Under the pieces are notes generated by a model. That model was not told the origin of the DNA, searched no databases, and saw only the letters and a list, made by a program, of their open reading frames with translations. A stretch of 64,000 bases of DNA from IMG/VR virus record IMGVR_UViG_3300029818_000001, positions 10,576 to 74,575 of that record. One strand, 5' to 3'. The translations under genes were made by a program, and so were the position numbers. This DNA comes from a virus (taxonomy: Duplodnaviria; Caudoviricetes). Below, piece after piece: positions 8,493 to 40,226 of the stretch. Numbering within the stretch: the first letter of the stretch is position 1; every line of letters begins with the position of its first letter.

Positions 8493-9247
8493 TTGATCTG
8501 ATTGATCGCACCTCGCTTAATGCGGCCACTCATTATGCCGACTTCATTCGGTCGCTGCGTGGTGAGTTATCGCGCATTATGAGTTTACCCAACCCTGGCT
8601 CGCCGTCTGCCCGTCGTCAATTTACTGCCGGTGGTCATCACTTGATCGAGAGTCATCTGGAGAGTATTTCGAGACTGCTGGATCAGGGCTTCGGCGAGAT
8701 ATGGGCGGGCGCACTTGGAAATGCTTTGACCGGCGAGGAAGCGAATGAAGATTTAAGGGGCTTGAGAGATAGTCTAGTCTCCGTTGTCGATGGAGGGCCG
8801 AATGATCACCTGCTGGCGGCGATACGGTCCTTCATGAGTAGAGATGTCGAATATGGCGCACAACAACTGAAGCGATTGGCTTTCGACATTGTGACCATGA
8901 TGTCTGATACGTCGCTCAATAATGCCATTCGCGGGGCGGTGGTGAAAAGCATCGTGGGGCGTCACAACTACACTCACAAAAATAACAAGGAATGGCCGAC
9001 AATTCGAAAGACCCGTCTGTCAATTCGGCATCATTTGCTTAAAACGCACAATGAGATAGTCATATTGGTCGGCACCTCTAAGGGAGAGCGTCAGTTTGTT
9101 GTTAAGAATGAATCTCAAGAACACCGCAATCATGGCATGGAGTTTACGATCGATAGAGACGGCGACTTACCCTGGTATCACGATATCGAAGCCACGGTAT
9201 TTCATCCGAACTCCCGATCGCTAGTGTCCAGAAAGGTAAGTAAATGA
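8489..9247 (+). CDS. Putative minor head protein (MuF/SPP1 gp7-like, divergent)
   Basis: C-terminal FHPNSRS resembles the HPNCRC signature; located in the neck region. Confidence 0.4.
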   Translation: MIDLIDRTSLNAATHYADFIRSLRGELSRIMSLPNPGSPSARRQFTAGGHHLIESHLESISRLLDQGFGEIWAGALGNALTGEEANEDLRGLRDSLVSVVDGGPNDHLLAAIRSFMSRDVEYGAQQLKRLAFDIVTMMSDTSLNNAIRGAVVKSIVGRHNYTHKNNKEWPTIRKTRLSIRHHLLKTHNEIVILVGTSKGERQFVVKNESQEHRNHGMEFTIDRDGDLPWYHDIEATVFHPNSRSLVSRKVSK

Positions 9248-10445: not shown

Positions 10446-10973
10446 ATGGCAAGTAGCACAGAGAATGTAAAGCTTGGCGTTTGCAAGATTACTTACAAAG
10501 GCCAGGACTTAGGATACACAAAGGGTGGCGTAAGTGTCGACGTAACGACCGACACTTATGCTGTTACGGTCGATCAGTTTGGCGAGTCCGTCATTAACGA
10601 ATACATCACTAAGCGCGACATCAAAGTGGAGTGTCCACTGGCAGAAACCACGTTGGAAAACTTGGTTAATATTATGCCTGGCGCCTCGCTGGTAACGGAT
10701 GACGTCGACTCAACCAAAAAGCGCGTGGATGTTACCAACGGCATCGGCACCAACTTATTGTCCATTGCTGGCGAGCTTCGCTTGCACCCAATTGAGTTGG
10801 ACGATGCGGATCAGTCGGAAGACTTGGTAATCCCATTGGCTGCAACAGCCGGTGCGATGAAGTTCAGTTACAAGCATGACGAGGAGCGTGTGTTTAACAC
10901 CTCTTTCATGGGCTACCCTGACTCTGCGACCAACATTCTGTATTCGTTGGGCGACACGACCGCAGAGGCTTAA
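10446..10973 (+). CDS. Major tail tube protein
   Basis: LGVCKITY, LGYTKGGV and DQFG motifs; precedes the chaperones and tape measure. Confidence 0.8.
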   Translation: MASSTENVKLGVCKITYKGQDLGYTKGGVSVDVTTDTYAVTVDQFGESVINEYITKRDIKVECPLAETTLENLVNIMPGASLVTDDVDSTKKRVDVTNGIGTNLLSIAGELRLHPIELDDADQSEDLVIPLAATAGAMKFSYKHDEERVFNTSFMGYPDSATNILYSLGDTTAEA

Positions 10974-18108: not shown

Positions 18109-18723
18109 ATGCTGACTAAGATAATTCTAGATGGACCGATGGGTAAGAGATTTGGCCGCGAGTGGAATCTTGCCGTAAATTCGCCAGCAGATGCGTTGAG
18201 AATGATAGATGCCAATAAGTCAGGCGTCTTTGTGTGGATTCGCGACAATTTGGACAAATACGAGGGTTATCAGATCATTTGTAAACATGAGGATGGCTCC
18301 GAAGAGTATCTAAATAACGACACGTTCGAGTTGGAGAGAAAGCTGAAGGAGATTCGCTTTGTTCCGACCGTAGTGGGGGCCGGTGGCAACAATAAAGGCA
18401 TGGGCGCTTTGCAGATAGTTTTAGGCATTGTCATCATTATCGCGGCCATTTGGACCGGCGGCATGGCTGCCGCCGCCATTCCTGGCGTATTGGCGGGTGT
18501 CAGCATGATTGCCAGCGGTATCGTTACCATGCTAACCACGATGCCCAAGCCGGGCGATATGTCGGATACGGAGCGTAGAGATGGAACGTCTTACTATTTC
18601 GACGGGCCGACCAATACATCTATGGAAGGTGTGCCGGTGCCCTTAATAATAGGCCGGTGTCTAGTTGGATCTCACCCAATTTATGTCAATTTAACAGTGG
18701 ATGATAAGGTAAAAGGATCATGA
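18109..18723 (+). CDS. Tail assembly protein, lambda gpI-like (ubiquitin-like fold + hydrophobic segment)
   Basis: N-terminal domain ending FVPTVVGAGG, hydrophobic stretch, GVPVPLIIG. Confidence 0.9.
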   Translation: MLTKIILDGPMGKRFGREWNLAVNSPADALRMIDANKSGVFVWIRDNLDKYEGYQIICKHEDGSEEYLNNDTFELERKLKEIRFVPTVVGAGGNNKGMGALQIVLGIVIIIAAIWTGGMAAAAIPGVLAGVSMIASGIVTMLTTMPKPGDMSDTERRDGTSYYFDGPTNTSMEGVPVPLIIGRCLVGSHPIYVNLTVDDKVKGS

Positions 18724-21700
18724 GTGTAAGTCAGGTTATCGGGTCGGGCGGCGGCTGCTTTAGAAAAGGCACTCAGATTCAGCTAGAGCACGGTAAGACT
18801 GTCGCTATCGATAGTCTAAAAGAAGGCGATGAAGTCCTGGCGTTTGACGAGGCTGGAGACATTCATGTCGCAAAAGTTATCAAGCTACATATCCACGAAG
18901 AGCCGCAGCCTATTCTCAGAGTCAAATTTTGGCGGGGTGAGATATTCGTTACGCCAAATCATTGGGTTTTAAATCAATTCTGCTCTTTCGTGGAAATGAG
19001 CACATTGTCTATCGATGACGCGCTCGTTGACAGCATGGGGCATTTGAGACCCATCATAGAGATGGAGCATGTGGGTTTTGAAGAAGTCTACAACTTAACG
19101 GTTGAGCCGCATCACACCTTTATTGCAGATGGTGTTCGAGTTCACAACGGCGGTCATAGAGAGCGATATCCCGAAGTTAAGGGCGCTGGCGGAGGCTCCA
19201 AAAGCACAGGTGGTCGCGTCGCTGTCGAAGCAAGAGACACATTACGCTCTCACGCGCAGGTCTCTCTGATCGATCTGCTCGGAGAGGGCGAGATTGGCGG
19301 TCTAGTAGACGGAGCAAAGTCAATATTCTTGGACGATACGCCTCTGATGAGCGCATCGGGCGGATACAATTTCACCAACGTGGAGTGGGATTTTAGGCCG
19401 GGAACGCCAAATCAATCAATCATTCCAAACTTTTCAGACGTTGGAACTCCGGTTGTTGCGAGTCATGCGCTGACGACATCGGCGCCCTATACATTTACCG
19501 TTAGCAATCCGAATGTAGATAGAGTTCGAATCGTTATGAATGTTTTGTCGCTAATGCGGCAAGACCCAGCGACAGGCGATATAAATGGAGCGCAGGTTAA
19601 ATATCAATTCGCCATGTCTGTCGATGGCGGGCCAATGTCAGTCATCGGTGACGATATAACCATTAAAGGTAAGACTCGATCGAAGTATCAGCGCGCTCAT
19701 CTTATTGATCTGCCCAAGCCTGGCTCGACATGGACGATACAGGTCAGAAGACTGACAGCCGACTCGTCATCTTCGGCGCTCTCTAACGCCACTCAAGTAG
19801 ATAGCTATGTAGAGATTACCGATGTAAAGCTGAATTATCCAAACTCAGCTTTGGTTTCGATGGCATTCGACCCCGAGTCATTCTCAAGAGTCCCAAGACG
19901 GTCGTATCTCGTCGATGGCGCTTATATTCAGGTTCCATCCAACTATGATCCTGTCACCAGAACTTACGCTGGAATTTGGAATGGCACTTTCAAGGTTGCG
20001 ATATCTAACAATCCGGCGTGGTGGCTTTATGAGTTGTTGGTCAATAAGCGAGTGGGGCTTGGCGACTACATCAGCTCAAATCAGGTCAACAAGGCAAAGC
20101 TTTATCTTGTCGGCAAGTATTGCGACGAGCTTGTGGATAATGGCTACGGCAGTCTTGAGCCGCGCTTCACCATCAATACGTCCATTCAAACCCGCGCAGA
20201 AGCCTATAAGCTGATTTCCGACATTGCGTCGGTGTTCAGAGGGATGGCATTTTGGGGTGGGGAGATGGTTGACTTCACCAACGATGCGCCAAGCCCTGGC
20301 GTTGGTATGGTGTTCTCTCAAGCCAACGTCGTTGACGGTCTATTTAATTATGTCGGGTCGTCAAGAAAAGACAGACATAGCGTTGTCTTGGTCACATGGA
20401 ACGATCCAGCCTCTAACTATAAGCAAAGAGTCGCCTATGTAGAAGATGCGGAGCTGATTCAAAAGATTGGCTATAAAAAGCTGGAGACTATCGCGTTCGG
20501 TTGCACAAGCGAGGCACAAGCTATCCGCGCGGGAAGATGGATTCTTTATACCGAGCGATACGAGACCAATTTGATTACCTTCAAGGTCGGCATGGATGCC
20601 GCCTTAGTAATGCCTGGTGAAGTCATCAGAATTCACGAGCCGACAAGAGCCGGGAAGCGCATGAGTGGTCGCATTAAAAGCGCAACCACAACATCAGTAA
20701 CGCTCGATGCTCCTGTTACTCTCGATACCTCAAATGCCACCATCAGCGTTAGATTACCCGATGGAACATTCGTAGATAGACAAGTCAATCAGGGAATAGG
20801 GAGTCATTCGGTATTAACTTGGACCAGCGCCTTATCTGTGGTTCCCAGTAAGATGGCTATGTTTGTGGTGTCGGAGACGAATCTCGTGCCGATGCTGGCC
20901 CGAGTTATCAACGTTAAGCCAGGCGAGGGCGATCAAAAACACACTTACGAAATTGCATGCGTAGAACATAATCCTACCAAATACAATGCGGTCGAGAGCA
21001 ACCTTCTTATCGAGCAGCCCCAAACCTCGATCGTGGACCCATTTAATGAAAACCCGACCAATATATCGATAGACGAGTCGACCTATTTTATCGCACCAGG
21101 CGTTATTGGCTCTAAGCTTCACATTTCATGGGAAGGTAAGGCTAAGTATTTTGAAGTCAGTTACCGCATCACTGTTGACGATGAGACTTCGAACTGGCAC
21201 ATAGAGACAATCACGGTCCCCTCTTACGAGATTCTAGGTCTGCGAGCCGGTTCGGTTGTGGACATCAGAGTTATTGCCGTTAGCAGCAAGGATGTCAGAT
21301 CACTACCGCTTGACGCAACCTACTCGATACTGGGTAAGACAGCCGCGCCTTCGCCGCCAACTAATCTGACCGCACAGCCGCAAGGCTCAAGGTCTGTTTT
21401 GTTACGATGGACGAATCCCGCCGACATAGATTTCGATCATGTCGAAATCTATATGAGTGTGCCAGCAGAGCCGGAGAATCCAGAAGATCCATTGAGTGTT
21501 CAGGCGGCGATAGATGCAGCCGACAATGGTCTATTGGCAGAGCGCATCGCTAGAACCTCTGGAGATACTTTTCTAGTTACCGGATTGCCGCCTCAAGCCG
21601 TAACTCGCTTTTTTTGGGCGAAGGCGGTTGACACATCGGGTAATAAGTCGCAATTTAACGCAATTCCAGGCACGTCGGCAAGCACCGAAGCAGAAGCCGA

Positions 21701-33400: not shown

Positions 33401-33509
33401 TTCAATTCCGCCACTCAAATTGCGTCTCTCTAATATAAATAACTTATATAATATCTTTTCTTAATAACTATTATATTTAGAGAGCGTGAAAATGAGTGGC
33501 GGTTTTGAA
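33401..33509. repeat. Inverted-repeat/AT-rich element, copy 2 (origin-like)
   Basis: CCGCCACTCA (33408-33417) and TGAGTGGCGG (33493-33502) flank a 75-bp A/T-rich spacer; the first 21 bp equal the reverse complement of 123-143. Confidence 0.85.
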
Positions 33510-34151
33510 TTCTTCACAGTCGGTAAATTTTATGGCTCAGAACTTGCGGATTTCGACTGCGAGTTGCTGATGATGGAAAGATTCGCGGGTAACGAGCGGG
33601 CCTTTAAAAAGGAGTTTAAGACAGAGCTGCGGCTTATGCAGACCAAGTGGTTCGATTACCGGCTTTTACATCCTGTGGTTGCCACCTATCTCTACGCTGC
33701 GGAGTTCACCCGTATCTATCAGCGTTACTACGCCAAGACTCGCGATTATGAAAAGGCTGAGTTCGTCAAGGGGTTTTCTGGTGGAGATGCTTGGCGAGCC
33801 AAGAACTCCGGTGGATTCATTAAAGGCCGGCGTCAGGCGGATGCGCTCGGCATACCTTATTGGTTCTACATCGATCACGCTTTCGAGTTCTTGTATCGCA
33901 AGTGTTGGAAACACATACCCTGGCATATTCATCTTTACACTAAAGAGATCGTGGAGTTTGTGCAGACGGAGTGGCTGACTTATTCGAGAGAATGCTTGGT
34001 GTTGGCTGAACTCGACTTCTTCAAGGGCGATCAAAACAAAGGTAGAGAGGAATGGCGAGCGCATCGACAATGGCTAATCAATAGAATTATGAGATCGCCG
34101 GTCCCTAAGTTGGCAGCAGATAGTTTGCGCGAAAGAGGCTATGTAATTTAG
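33492..34151 (+). CDS. Hypothetical protein (candidate replication factor)
   Basis: ~219 aa, aromatic/basic; start codon lies inside the element's right arm; upstream of Hfq-helicase-primase. Confidence 0.7.
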   Translation: MSGGFEFFTVGKFYGSELADFDCELLMMERFAGNERAFKKEFKTELRLMQTKWFDYRLLHPVVATYLYAAEFTRIYQRYYAKTRDYEKAEFVKGFSGGDAWRAKNSGGFIKGRRQADALGIPYWFYIDHAFEFLYRKCWKHIPWHIHLYTKEIVEFVQTEWLTYSRECLVLAELDFFKGDQNKGREEWRAHRQWLINRIMRSPVPKLAADSLRERGYVI

Positions 34152-34162
34152 CCTGAGAAACT

Positions 34163-34178
34163 AAGTCATGGATGACTA
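34163..34178. promoter_or_regulatory. Operator-like site overlapping a -10-like TATACT
   Basis: AAGTCA-TGGA-TGACTA; TATACT at 34177-34182. Confidence 0.65.
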
Positions 34179-34250
34179 TACTTTTTCACGGTCGAGCGTT
34201 ATTATAGCGACTCGGTTTTAAACGTTCGATTTACAAGCAAGAGGATAAAG

Positions 34251-34550
34251 ATGCATAGCAATCAACAGGATAGAAAGACTTTAACATTGAAGAGAGAGTC
34301 AAGGTTTCAATACCCAGCCAAGAAAAAACCCGGTTCGCTAAGATTATCGAAGCATGAGTCTGACCTCAAAAGAATACAAGAGAGCGGTAAGGAAATTAAT
34401 CTCTTCTTAATGTCTGGAGTTCTTATGACAGGTAGGGTTATCGCCGTAGATAAATACACCATCAAGATAGATGCCAAGCTCGTCAATGGAAAAGTAAAAT
34501 CACATACCTTCTTTAAACACAGCATCGAGTCTTTCTCTGAGGTTGAATAA
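34251..34550 (+). CDS. hfq: Hfq/Sm-like protein
   Basis: Sm1-like INLFLMSGVLMTGRVIAVDKYTI and Sm2-like FFKHSIESF (compare Hfq [23 protein letters not shown] / VYKHAISTV). Confidence 0.75.
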   Translation: MHSNQQDRKTLTLKRESRFQYPAKKKPGSLRLSKHESDLKRIQESGKEINLFLMSGVLMTGRVIAVDKYTIKIDAKLVNGKVKSHTFFKHSIESFSEVE

Positions 34551-35956: not shown

Positions 35957-37008
35957 TGAGTGACGCTCTTCAGGAGATGCTTTTGGCGCTCGACATGGAG
36001 GAGTGGCTGAGCTACGAAGGCGTTGAGTTTAGACGCACACGAGGCTCCCGAGGCGATCAGCTACATATCAAACAATGCCCAAGCTGCGGCAAGAGTGACT
36101 GGAAGGTGTATCTCAACGCTGAAACTGGCTTGGGCAACTGTTTTCACGCAGATTGCCCAAAAGGGACCTTTAATAAGTATTCCTTCATTCGCGAAACCTT
36201 ATTGAATCAGTCGGACAAGCCAAATATCAAAGAACACATTAAAAACTTCGTGCGCGAAATGGGGTGGCGTCCTCGCCGCAAGGTCTCCGCTCATGTGGAG
36301 ATGTCGGCAGAGGATTTAGAGATACCGAATTACTTACCAATTCCGATTGAAGGTAAGAATCTCAAGTATCTAATCGATCGACGAGTTGATATTGAAATGG
36401 CAAAGTATTTCAATTTGGGCTATATCAAGTCAGGATACTTCGGTCAGCGAATCTTTATACCTATTCACGATCTGGATGGGTCGCTGGTTTCATTTCAAGC
36501 CAGGGATATCACCGGCAAGGCTGAGAGAAGGTATCTGTTCCCCAAAGGCTTTGCGTCAACCGCTAGAATCCTCTATAACGGACAGAATGCGTGGCGTAAG
36601 AAGCGCATGGTGATCGTCGAAGGGGTGTTCGATGTCATCGGCACCAAGATTGCCTTCGATGAGACCGATGAGTTCAAAGAAGTAGCGATCGTCGGCTCCT
36701 TCGGCTTGTCGCTGTCGGGAGGTGTGGTCAATAATGACGACGATCAAGTTAGGCGACTAATTGAATTGAAAAAGGCCGGTCTTGAAGAGATTACGCTGAT
36801 GTGGGATGGCGAAGCTAGAGCGATGAAGAAGGCGATCGCTCAAGCTGACGTTCTAACCAGCTTAGGCTTTGTCGTCAAAATTAGTAAGCTGCCTGAGAAT
36901 AGAGACCCAGGTGATTTAGCCCCTTCCGTCATTCGTCAGTGCTTTAGACAGGCGACCACATTCAATCAAGTTAATTCGCTTAAGCTAAAGTTGGCATTTT
37001 GCAAATAA
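35953..37008 (+). CDS. DNA primase (Zn finger + TOPRIM)
   Basis: CPSC...CFHADC, VEGVFD, WDGE, DPGDL. Confidence 0.88.
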   Translation: MMSDALQEMLLALDMEEWLSYEGVEFRRTRGSRGDQLHIKQCPSCGKSDWKVYLNAETGLGNCFHADCPKGTFNKYSFIRETLLNQSDKPNIKEHIKNFVREMGWRPRRKVSAHVEMSAEDLEIPNYLPIPIEGKNLKYLIDRRVDIEMAKYFNLGYIKSGYFGQRIFIPIHDLDGSLVSFQARDITGKAERRYLFPKGFASTARILYNGQNAWRKKRMVIVEGVFDVIGTKIAFDETDEFKEVAIVGSFGLSLSGGVVNNDDDQVRRLIELKKAGLEEITLMWDGEARAMKKAIAQADVLTSLGFVVKISKLPENRDPGDLAPSVIRQCFRQATTFNQVNSLKLKLAFCK

Positions 37009-37022
37009 GTCATTGGTGACTT
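37007..37022. promoter_or_regulatory. Palindromic operator-like site (perfect)
   Basis: AAGTCA-TTGG-TGACTT. Confidence 0.7.
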
Positions 37023-37059: not shown

Positions 37060-37617
37060 GTGAACGGCGAAGAGGATGTTGTGAGCGCTTCAAATCAAGA
37101 CACGATACGGGCAGCGTTCGAAATATTGAATGTCGCTCTCAAGAGTTCGGACGTAATGAGGAACAAGGGCGGGTATAGGCAATGTGAGGTGATGATTTTA
37201 ACCTATCAAGTTCCAGAGCCGGCCACCAATAAAAGATTTCCAGTGCCGCTTGTGAGTGAGTTTAAAGCGGTTGGGGTGACTCAGATTACTGAGAGAGACA
37301 ATACAAGGCATCTTAAGATTGTGAGGCCAACCGGCATATCGGAAGCTCATAGTTATCTGAATAAGATTGTGAGTGACAGAAAGGCTAGAGGTTACTGGCA
37401 CGATGGCTTGTATGCTTGCTGGACAGGCGAAAGAGCTTTCTCATACGTTCAACACAGAATCGATCTAACTTCAACCAAAAGTCACACTTTGATGAATTTC
37501 ATAGATGGCATGGTTAGGCATGCGGGGCTTGTTGAGTCGTCGCGGCTCGCCTCAACGCCAGACGCGAGCGTTATCGAGACAAAGATGAAATTAAATCCAC
37601 TTTACGGGAGTTGGTAA
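37060..37617 (+). CDS. Hypothetical protein ending YGSW
   Basis: 185-aa ORF, coupled to the next gene by TAATG. Confidence 0.6.
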   Translation: MNGEEDVVSASNQDTIRAAFEILNVALKSSDVMRNKGGYRQCEVMILTYQVPEPATNKRFPVPLVSEFKAVGVTQITERDNTRHLKIVRPTGISEAHSYLNKIVSDRKARGYWHDGLYACWTGERAFSYVQHRIDLTSTKSHTLMNFIDGMVRHAGLVESSRLASTPDASVIETKMKLNPLYGSW

Positions 37618-38255
37618 TGAATGAGCAAGAAGAGAAGCACCCACTGGAGTTTTCCCTCAAAGGAAACAACACGATCTATGTCGGCTGCGAGTTTCGAGCC
37701 TTTCGTCAAAACTATGCGATTTGTTTGAATGTTATCAAGGCATACGAAGAAGGTCGCCGCAAGCTTGAGGAAGAGTGTTGTAGCGAGATCAAGCGAGGCG
37801 TTTGTCCCGCGCTCGCCATGAGAAAAGAAGAAGTCGAGGCAGGCTATGCGTTGCATTATAAACCTAGAGCACCTGCACCTGAGGTTAAGAAAGAGGAGAA
37901 GGTGATTTTTCAATCCTCGAATTACACTCAAAAAGATCCAAACTATCAGCGCGGGTGGAATCACGCCGGGTCAGTCATTAATGGCGCAAAGAATAAATCC
38001 ATCAAGAGTGTGCCAATTGCACCTTTGGCACAAAACAAGAGATTTACGGCGGATGTGGAGGCTAGAGTTAAAAGCGACAATCTTTCCTTTTCTGATGCCA
38101 TATCATCAGCAATCAAGAGTGAGATTGGCGATACGAAAAATCAGCAAAAACAAAAAGAGTTGGTAGAGAAAGAAATTAAAGAGACTCCAATTAAGCAGGA
38201 GTCGTTATTGGAAAAAGCAAGACGTTTAAGAGAGCAAAAGGAGATGAGTAGATGA
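37617..38255 (+). CDS. Hypothetical protein with N-terminal Cys cluster
   Basis: CEFR..YAIC..CC..CPAL; ATG at 37617. Confidence 0.65.
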   Translation: MNEQEEKHPLEFSLKGNNTIYVGCEFRAFRQNYAICLNVIKAYEEGRRKLEEECCSEIKRGVCPALAMRKEEVEAGYALHYKPRAPAPEVKKEEKVIFQSSNYTQKDPNYQRGWNHAGSVINGAKNKSIKSVPIAPLAQNKRFTADVEARVKSDNLSFSDAISSAIKSEIGDTKNQQKQKELVEKEIKETPIKQESLLEKARRLREQKEMSR

Positions 38256-39050: not shown

Positions 39051-39137
39051 TGGTGCCGAGGAGAGGACTTGAACCTCCACGCCCTTGCGAGCACTAGCAC
39101 CTGAAGCTAGCGTGTCTACCAATTTCACCACCTCGGC
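39051..39137 (-). tRNA. tRNA-Leu(CAG), complete with CCA
   Basis: Reverse complement GCCGAGGTGGTGAAATTGGTAGACACG CTAGC TTCAGGT GCTAG ... GTTCAAGTC ... CTCGGCACCA; 87 nt, long variable arm. Confidence 0.95.
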
Positions 39138-39230: not shown

Positions 39231-39269
39231 AAGTAGCTCTGGCACACTCTCGGCACAGTGAGAAAAATT

Positions 39270-40226
39270 ATGGCGACAATTAGAAAGCGGTCGGGCAAGT
39301 GGCACGTTCAAGTTAGAAAGTTGGGTCAGTCAATAACCAGAAGTTTTACTAGCAAGAACGATGCCGAAAGATGGGCTAGACAGACAGAAAGCGAAATTGA
39401 GCAAGATCGCTTTGTGCCAAAAAGAAAATCGGTCAACTTGTCATTTTTACTTGACAAGTGGCGAGACGAAGTGTTGATAAATCTAAAAAGCCACTCTGTC
39501 GATAAATATAAGGTGGAGCTTATTAAGCGCAGTCTTGGCGAATACTCGCTGAATGAGATCACCAGTGAGCGTCTTGCTGCATATCGGGACGAGCGCGCGA
39601 AAGAGGTTTCAGCACAAACCGTCAAGCATGAGTTGGGAATTATCCGGCGAGCTATGAACTGCGGCGTTGAATGGGGCTTCAACAATAGCGTCCCCTATGT
39701 TAAATCACCCTCGCTGAAGGGTCAGGGTCGCAAGCGCAGATTAAACGATAATGAATCTGCCAAGCTTGAGGCGACTGTGGATGAATACATGCACAACATC
39801 ATCATCTTTCTGGAGGAGACCGCCATGCGTCGCGGGGAGTTGGCAAAAATTAAACTGTCCGATGTCAGTATCGATGAGCGGTCTATTCATTTGGGCGACA
39901 CCAAGAATGGCGATGACCGAGTGGTCCCGGTAAGTAAAAGAGGTATGACAGCTTTGCGTTATCTGATGGACAACGCAAAGGGAGAGAAATTGTTAAATTA
40001 CTCGAAAGGCTGGTTGTCGAGAAAATTCACACGATATAGAAAGAGCGCAGGCATAGAAGATTTTCGACTGCATGACTTTCGACATGAAGGCGCTTCGCTG
40101 CTATTCGAAAAGGGCTTGAACGTGATGGAGGTTGGGGCAATTACAGGTCACAAAGATTTGGCATCACTTAGTCGATACACTCATATCAACACCAGACACT
40201 TATTGAAAAAGCTGGACGAGAAGTGA
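39270..40226 (+). CDS. int: Tyrosine integrase
   Basis: TAMRRGE (R), TKNG (K), HDFRH, GHK, RYTH (Y); N-terminal arm-binding-like region; adjacent to the tRNA. Confidence 0.95.
   Translation: MATIRKRSGKWHVQVRKLGQSITRSFTSKNDAERWARQTESEIEQDRFVPKRKSVNLSFLLDKWRDEVLINLKSHSVDKYKVELIKRSLGEYSLNEITSERLAAYRDERAKEVSAQTVKHELGIIRRAMNCGVEWGFNNSVPYVKSPSLKGQGRKRRLNDNESAKLEATVDEYMHNIIIFLEETAMRRGELAKIKLSDVSIDERSIHLGDTKNGDDRVVPVSKRGMTALRYLMDNAKGEKLLNYSKGWLSRKFTRYRKSAGIEDFRLHDFRHEGASLLFEKGLNVMEVGAITGHKDLASLSRYTHINTRHLLKKLDEK

Follow-up and report, generated by a model that had tools for sequence, protein, structure and literature searches.

An Hfq-like protein gene joined to the replicative helicase gene in a lineage of phages: gene context, conservation, and possible roles

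The Hfq-like gene and its operon

The DNA analyzed here (hereafter the window) is a stretch of 64,000 nucleotides (nt), positions 10,576 to 74,575, of the 74.6-kb IMG/VR virus record IMGVR_UViG_3300029818_000001; the same phage, uncultured and ~100 kb in size, is carried by a 99-kb metagenomic contig. All long open reading frames (ORFs) of the window lie on the + strand, and the ORF at 34251..34550 (99 amino acids, aa) encodes an Hfq-like protein immediately ahead of the gene for a DnaB-like replicative helicase. The window protein is a true homologue of Hfq, the bacterial Sm protein, in remodelled form, and it is specific to a lineage of ~100–115-kb phages (Nickievirus-like isolates, prophages, and many metagenomic phages). 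An earlier note made from this sequence described a TAATG overlap between the Hfq-like and helicase genes, and this is confirmed: base 34550 belongs both to the TAA of the Hfq-like ORF (34548–34550) and to the ATG of the helicase gene (Table 1). The gene calls arrange the overlap of the helicase stop with the primase start in the same manner, and no terminator-like site was found between the beginning of the Hfq-like gene and the end of the primase gene. The hfq-like, dnaB, and primase genes are one three-gene unit with 1-nt overlaps, bracketed by two copies of a palindromic motif. The Hfq-like gene stands apart in composition, with a GC content of 38.7% and a GC content at third codon positions (GC3) of 44%, vs. 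46–49% and 54–56%, respectively, for the four flanking genes.

Table 1. Coordinates of the helicase–primase unit, its signals, and the gene preceding it in the window; L002 is a Logan contig carrying a related locus.
Feature	Position	Strand	Remarks
phrog_2500 protein, 221 aa, all-helical	33486..34151	+	phrog_2500 E 5.8e-35; directly before Hfq-like gene
Palindrome AAGTCATGGATGACT	34163..34177		Ahead of Hfq-like gene; identical in L002
TATTAT, −10-like hexamer	34200..34205	+	In block GCGTTATTATAGC, conserved in L002
Shine-Dalgarno AGAGGA	34240..34245	+	5 nt upstream of Hfq-like ATG; AAGAGGA invariant in L002
Hfq-like codons 1–34, basic disordered N-terminal arm	34251..34352	+	Net charge +8; ends directly before invariant His35
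Hfq-like codons 35–99 and stop, Sm/Hfq core	34353..34550	+	Helix 36–45, five strands; pocket residues H35, D67, K68, Y69, F88, K89, H90, F95
GAGG, dnaB ribosome-binding site	34539..34542	+	Within Hfq-like 3' end, 7 nt before helicase ATG
DnaB-like replicative helicase, 468 aa	34550..35956	+	Pfam DnaB_C E 2.9e-18; phrog_19 E 3.4e-75
DnaG-type primase, 350–351 aa	35953..37008	+	phrog_47 E 1.7e-50; DNAG_N E 2.3e-7; start overlaps helicase stop
Palindrome AAGTCATTGGTGACT	37007..37021		After primase, before next gene (37060); L002 counterpart 8776–8790

The palindromic motif has the consensus AAGTCAyNNrTGACT and is present in ~15 copies in the window, which are mostly intergenic and mostly located a few to ~100 nt past a stop codon, in the structural and replication regions alike (15-nt sites starting at 196, 3621, 6205, 7309, 9238, 10978, 27123, 34163, 37007, 41325, 43291, 51087, and 51744). 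Allowing at most one mismatch, AAGTCANNNNTGACT has 27 matches on both strands, vs. 1.1 expected. Both the 34163 copy and the 37007 copy have counterparts at equivalent positions in L002. At the head of the operon, the blocks around the 34163 copy and around the TATTAT hexamer ~22 nt later are kept in L002, the Hfq-like protein of which is 56% identical to that of the window, and the neighbouring intergenic DNA has diverged. Similar hexamers (TAttAT, TACAAT, or GATAAT) occur at the same distance (~22 nt) after several other copies of the motif, and a promoter-like sequence, TTGTAA-17-TACAAT, follows the 37007 copy. The centre of the palindrome would lie ~41 bp upstream of the predicted transcription start. 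The palindrome is probably the binding site of a dimeric protein, of phage or host, at the operon head; a DNA site is likelier than an RNA hairpin, because the half-sites vary independently. A hairpin followed by a U-tract, of the type bound by Hfq, was considered and is disfavoured: variants of the motif break the pairing without compensation, and the U-run is unconserved between copies. The earlier claim that the gene has its own operator and −10-like site is partly borne out, with respect to the repeated palindrome, conserved in L002, and the conserved TATTAT, but gains nothing from a generic sigma-70 scan, which was at chance level (14 found vs. 14.2 expected). The leader contains U-rich stretches (ACTTTTT at 34180–34186; GGTTTTAAA at 34213), its RNA fold is insignificant (z −1.84), and an Rfam scan of the window detected a tRNA-Leu only and no small regulatory RNA (sRNA).

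Hfq homology and retained residues

The Pfam Hfq family matches residues 39–95 of the window protein (E 4.8e-6), at 26.5 bits vs. a gathering cut-off of 27; in a six-frame Pfam search, with neighbouring residues included, the match exceeds the cut-off. Every sequence in the PDB that is matched by the window protein using HMMER is Hfq or Hfq-like, and identity to Hfq proteins is only 15–28%. An exhaustive HMMER search over 1.84 billion representatives returned 51 clusters at E≤1e-3, almost all of them with a length of 80–134 aa. The phage clade comprises ~50 clusters (clustered at 50% identity), and 49 sequences were used for a family profile and for the column counts given below. This profile matches Bacillus subtilis Hfq at E 1.8e-11, with Hfq as each of its best 35 PDB matches; individually, 45 of the 49 members match Pfam Hfq (E≤0.01), and only five touch PF21979 (Hfq_1). 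The metagenomic protein P0015 (2574 aa, without a Pfam family) contains two stretches that match residues 33–64 (E 4.5e-7), which may be due to chance or low complexity.

In a single-sequence AlphaFold2 (AF2) model, the predicted local distance difference test score (pLDDT) is ~90 for the core and ~50 for the N-terminal arm, and the secondary structure consists of a helix (36–45) followed by five strands (48–53, 58–66, 70–76, 82–88, and 92–97). The top Foldseek matches in the PDB are Hfq chains only, from Listeria, B. subtilis, Staphylococcus aureus, Caulobacter, Aquifex, Escherichia coli, and Pseudomonas, with a probability of 1.00 and target-normalised template modelling (TM) scores of 0.70–0.87 (0.87 for 1kq2). 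The earlier identification hinged on an Sm-like fold, and the AF2 core is Sm-like, with Hfq as the top Foldseek match; the Sm1-like (SG..G....D-K-Y-T-I) and Sm2-like (FKHSI) motifs that it cited are likewise present, and align both to real Hfq (HMMER) and to the Hfq of an Oxalobacter host.

The closest known proteins are Hfq of the Gram-positive type (PF17209), represented by B. subtilis (3AHU/3HSB), Listeria (4NL2/4NOY), and S. aureus (1KQ1/1KQ2), with which the window protein shares the helix and five strands, the Sm1 glycines and Asp, the Sm2 sequence F-K-H-[AS]-I, the uridine-pocket residues Tyr42/Lys57/His58, and a non-basic rim. Unlike Hfq, the phage family has an invariant His in place of Gln8, a basic arm of 20–55 residues at the N-terminus where Hfq has a tail at the C-terminus, no conserved distal aromatic residue, and a loop between strands 3 and 4 that is ~5 residues longer. 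The genomic setting also differs, in that the Hfq-like gene resides in a phage helicase–primase operon rather than in a miaA-hfq-hflX neighbourhood.

For the column counts, Hfq numbering was taken from HMMER alignments and from an alignment with proteobacterial (Oxalobacter host) Hfq. H35, D67, and K89 are invariant (49/49), and near-invariant residues are H90 (46/49), Gly61 (47/49), Gly56 (43/49), Leu39 (46/49), Phe95 (45/49), and Y/F69 (48/49). Y69, K89, and H90 align to Tyr42, Lys57, and His58 of S. aureus Hfq, which belong to the proximal-face pocket for uridine and RNA 3' ends. The Sm2 signature [YF]KHA[IV], with Lys56/His57, is matched by F88-K89-H90-S91-I92, and Phe/Tyr42 by D67-K68-Y69. 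At the position of Gln8, the fourth pocket residue of Hfq, all 49 sequences have a His (His35 in the window protein), which could still form hydrogen bonds. F88, F95, and I92, in strands 4 and 5 at positions that form the subunit interface in Hfq, are conserved, which is compatible with a homohexameric ring. The distal site for A-rich RNA is unconserved: F52 aligns to Tyr25 in a variable column (E in nine sequences, T in six, F in five, among others), and positions 57–60 are variable too. The basic rim (Arg16/17/19), which serves in RNA annealing by proteobacterial Hfq, is unmatched, the aligned residues being Q43-E44-S45-G46 (family consensus Q/K/E, D/E, S, G).

The two ends of the protein agree with what had been read from the sequence earlier, namely a basic N-terminal extension of ~35 aa and the lack of an acidic tail. 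The N-terminal 34 residues include 10 K/R vs. 2 D/E (isoelectric point 11.1) and are modelled by AF2 with low confidence. In homologues the arm before His35 is 18–54 residues long, predicted to be disordered, and basic in all 13 that were measured (+2 to +9), with weak conservation at Q5, R8, and T10-L11. At the C-terminus, three residues only (EVE) extend beyond strand 5. The clade shows which parts of Hfq a virus has chosen: the 3'-end pocket was kept, the distal face and the rim were discarded, and the tail was swapped for a basic N-terminal arm.

Conservation and neighbourhood across phages

Loci with a family member (n = 15) were drawn from the window, Pseudomonas phage hairong, L002, eight IMG/VR contigs, four distant members fetched by identity, and an Oxalobacter prophage near nadB. 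The locus scan used a 12-sequence subset of the family alignment, the 49-sequence alignment being too diverse for this purpose. Megablast of the module against isolate phages gave no match, and a relative was recovered by protein-level search alone; the orthologues in Nickievirus (e.g., in hairong) are annotated as hypothetical. All 15 loci have the order phrog_2500 homologue, Hfq-like gene, dnaB, with the primase gene next wherever the contig extends that far. This order holds even for Hfq-like members that are only 26–35% identical, and the spacing between the Hfq-like stop codon and the start of dnaB ranges from −4 to +14 nt throughout; the coupling to the helicase gene is conserved in every relative that has the Hfq-like gene. 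The helicases of the other loci with the gene (Hfq-plus loci) are 44–50% identical to that of the window, with tree path lengths of ~1.6 changes per site, and because the helicases are so divergent, we infer that the arrangement is old.

The Hfq-like protein itself evolves rapidly. Between the window and L002, the four neighbouring proteins are 81–89% identical, and the number of nonsynonymous substitutions per nonsynonymous site (dN) is 0.35 for the Hfq-like gene vs. 0.07–0.14 for the neighbours, i.e., 3–5 times faster. The divergence spans both the arm and the core, with the exception of the motif residues; the ratio of dN to synonymous divergence (dN/dS) is not computable for this pair, as synonymous sites are saturated. 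In Oxalobacter sp. (contig JAJDFZ010000019.1; L024 3235–6665), a prophage-like module consisting of phrog_2500, Hfq-like, dnaB, and primase genes begins ~150 nt after a nadB-like gene, and the same genome encodes a canonical hfq adjoining an hflX-like GTPase gene (L025).

The next-closest helicases (39–42% identity) are those of Rhizobium phage RHEph10, E. coli phage PhiR41_1, and Klebsiella phage p4727. The family profile has no match in the whole genomes of these three phages, no Pfam Hfq match in them is above threshold, and no Sm-like gene was found adjoining dnaB in any of them (Hfq-minus phages). PhiR41_1 and p4727 encode tandem Sm-like genes of the FljA family (PF03614), at 37204–37701 (L031) and 18407–18907 (L030), respectively. 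In a helicase tree, 12 Hfq-plus loci split from the three Hfq-minus loci with support of 83/91 (midpoint root only), which fits a single gain or loss of the Hfq-like gene. Because three related phages run the same helicase–primase module without it, the Hfq-like gene is a clade-specific accessory of this module, and neither an obligatory loader nor a required partner.

The gene preceding the Hfq-like gene encodes a protein of phrog_2500, for which there is no Pfam family, and which was found by tblastn in all loci, including the Hfq-minus relatives. Its AF2 model (11 sequences) is all-alpha with a pLDDT of 85; in the PDB, Foldseek found no fold match at E≤0.001 and the best VIA-align match has a Z of 4.2, and a protein atlas search gave no match. 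Because it is kept beside dnaB even where the Hfq-like gene is missing, the phrog_2500 protein is a better candidate for an initiator or loader than the Hfq-like protein. Upstream of the phrog_2500 gene is a PhoH gene, and between the two (33401–33509) a 33-nt inverted repeat (76% complementary) surrounds a 43-nt AT-rich core that contains two 22-nt direct repeats. This inverted repeat, the right arm of which overlaps the start of the phrog_2500 ORF, looks origin-like. Genes downstream of the operon encode an integrase, a DnaE-type polymerase, an NAD-ligase, a single-stranded DNA-binding protein (SSB), an exonuclease, and a UvsX-like recombinase. Apart from the integrase, these make up a full replisome, but no recognisable helicase loader was found among the phage proteins of the window in Pfam or PHROGs. 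The phage is probably temperate, since the tyrosine integrase gene (39258–40226, +; phrog_1 E 1.7e-54) lies beside the gene for tRNA-Leu(CAG) (39051–39137, −).

Possible roles of the Hfq-like protein

From its sequence and gene context, we favour, with a confidence that falls a little short of even, a role for the Hfq-like protein as a nucleic-acid-binding accessory of replication initiation, in preference to classical sRNA regulation. Replication initiation is suggested by the structure of the operon, by translation in concert with a hexameric helicase, and by the origin-like repeat upstream; circumstantial support for this link comes from the strict synteny and from the single operon, in which 1-nt overlaps run as far as the primase gene. 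Because the proximal pocket is conserved, the protein is predicted to form a ring that would bind single-stranded, probably U-rich, nucleic-acid ends by means of this pocket and the basic arms; classical sRNA–mRNA matchmaking is disfavoured because the distal and rim sites have been lost. Made in step with the helicase, the ring may hold or anneal an origin transcript or primer RNA; alternatively, it may help to place the helicase on opened DNA beside the upstream origin-like repeat. Its part would be to modulate initiation, and it would be inessential to the helicase family, because related phages manage without the gene. A more ambitious version, which we regard as doubtful, is that an Sm/Hfq ring has been recruited as a dedicated viral replication-initiation part, made 1:1 with DnaB, that would employ the conserved pocket and the basic arms to capture an origin transcript, R-loop, or primer so as to direct the helicase or primase; if true, this would be the first Sm-family protein with DNA replication as its primary job.

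Several considerations weigh against a role in replication. The formation of a ring, its ligand, and its partner are each something that we infer, and within a monophyletic phage lineage a conserved gene order may reflect common descent and not function. The conserved pocket corresponds to the site at which Hfq binds RNA 3' ends, and would suit RNA regulation equally. A rate of evolution 3–5 times that of the neighbouring genes is unusual for a core replisome part. Furthermore, RHEph10, PhiR41_1, and p4727 retain the adjacency of phrog_2500, DnaB, and primase genes, with 43–118 nt between the first two. A pairing of the basic arm with an acidic N-terminus of the helicase was examined as a candidate contact and rejected: acidic N-termini occur both with and without the Hfq-like gene, and in two Hfq-plus loci the helicase has almost none of this acidity.

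Among the alternatives, a post-transcriptional regulator comes closest, although we consider it unlikely. In that case the ring would take U-rich 3' ends, on RNAs of either host or phage, as its ligands; by stabilising or silencing these RNAs, or by competing for sRNAs with host Hfq, it would reprogramme gene expression early in infection, and the place of the gene before dnaB would reflect only the timing of expression. The proximal pocket for RNA 3' ends is the sole strongly conserved surface of the protein, and the fast evolution of the remainder suits interaction with, or takeover of, the host; additionally, related phages do without the gene, and in Oxalobacter it occurs together with a canonical host hfq, so that it is no replacement for the latter. 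The distal face and the arginine rim, however, which are needed for sRNA–mRNA annealing, are unconserved (the role of the arginine rim in RNA annealing is described in PMC3753642), and Rfam detected no phage sRNA. Regulation would also leave unexplained the strict adjacency and overlap with dnaB over deep divergence. Rings mixed from phage and host subunits, as proposed in the earlier note, are unlikely at such divergence: in the sole alignable stretch, the Oxalobacter prophage protein and the canonical Hfq that its host genome encodes are identical at only 12 of 35 residues, and the distal and rim residues are lost.

The possibility that the protein is a helicase loader proper, whereby a hexameric ring docks on the DnaB hexamer and delivers it to an origin opened by the phrog_2500 protein, is improbable. 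According to PMC11087808, in which Hfq is unmentioned, the loaders of phage helicases are of diverse and non-homologous kinds that share synteny with dnaB. The position of the gene and its translational coupling to dnaB are as expected of a loader, no known loader was found in the window, and the gene order is analogous to that of SPP1 genes 38-39-40. Against this, phages with 39–42% identical helicases and the same neighbours lack the Hfq-like gene; if a loader is needed, the conserved candidate is the phrog_2500 protein; and conservation of a uridine-type pocket is unexpected in a protein–protein adaptor. The Hfq-like protein has no similarity in Pfam or PHROGs to the loader families DnaC/DnaI, lambda P, SPP1 G39P, DciA, or VdhL, and its fold is that of Hfq; we know of no helicase loader with an Sm fold.

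Still less probable is a translational autoregulator: by binding the 5' leader or the gene junctions of its own operon transcript, the ring would determine how much helicase and primase is made. Repression of its own mRNA is known of E. coli Hfq, and the phage gene is the first of an operon with 1-nt overlaps throughout and a U-rich stretch in the leader; set against these are the insignificant stability of the leader fold and the fact that such a gene would be easily lost, yet it has been retained across the clade. Least probable of all is a role outside RNA regulation and replication, such as anti-defence by sequestration of nucleotides or defence-related RNAs, with the location an accident of insertion: the gene is accessory, evolves fast, and has a lower GC3 than its neighbours, but nothing points to any ligand, and the gene has kept its place through very deep divergence.

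Certain known systems resemble the module in part. SPP1 genes 38-39-40 encode an origin binder, a loader, and the helicase, and lambda O-P is likewise an initiator/loader module. The order in the window (a protein of no assigned function, a small protein, and a DnaB-type helicase, beside an origin-like repeat) is similar to that of both SPP1 G38P-G39P-G40P and lambda O-P, and the likeness is positional only: G39P and lambda P are helical proteins without an Sm fold. The FljA/Flag1_repress proteins (PF03614) of SSU5-type phage-plasmids, carried by PhiR41_1 and p4727, are tandem Sm-like translational repressors, likewise Sm-related and RNA-binding; unlike the window protein, they have two domains (~170 aa), are encoded ~39–45 kb from dnaB, and are undetected by the family profile. 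Small Sm-fold proteins, some of them phage-encoded, are also represented by PF21979 (Hfq_1) and by mycobacteriophage "Hfq-like domain" proteins such as Adephagia gp39, which have been noted by annotation or structure prediction only; the Hfq-like fold of gp39 is mentioned in passing in PMC11373665. The Hfq-like proteins of actinophages are distant structural matches of the window protein (Foldseek E ~1e-3 to 1e-2).

Hfq, one of the most intensively studied RNA chaperones of bacteria, first came to light as a host factor of an RNA phage. Literature searches recovered no paper that characterises a phage-encoded Hfq-like protein or notes a linkage to the helicase. The clade physically ties the gene for an Hfq-like protein to that for the replicative helicase across very divergent phages. 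Should this link prove functional, RNA handling by an Sm ring would be connected to the onset of DNA replication; otherwise, the clade would still offer minimal Hfq variants of natural origin, active in infected cells that also contain host Hfq. The function can be tested directly in relatives that are in culture, namely the Pseudomonas phages nickie, hairong, and Nican01, and a protein of nickie is among the structural matches to the window protein in BFVD.
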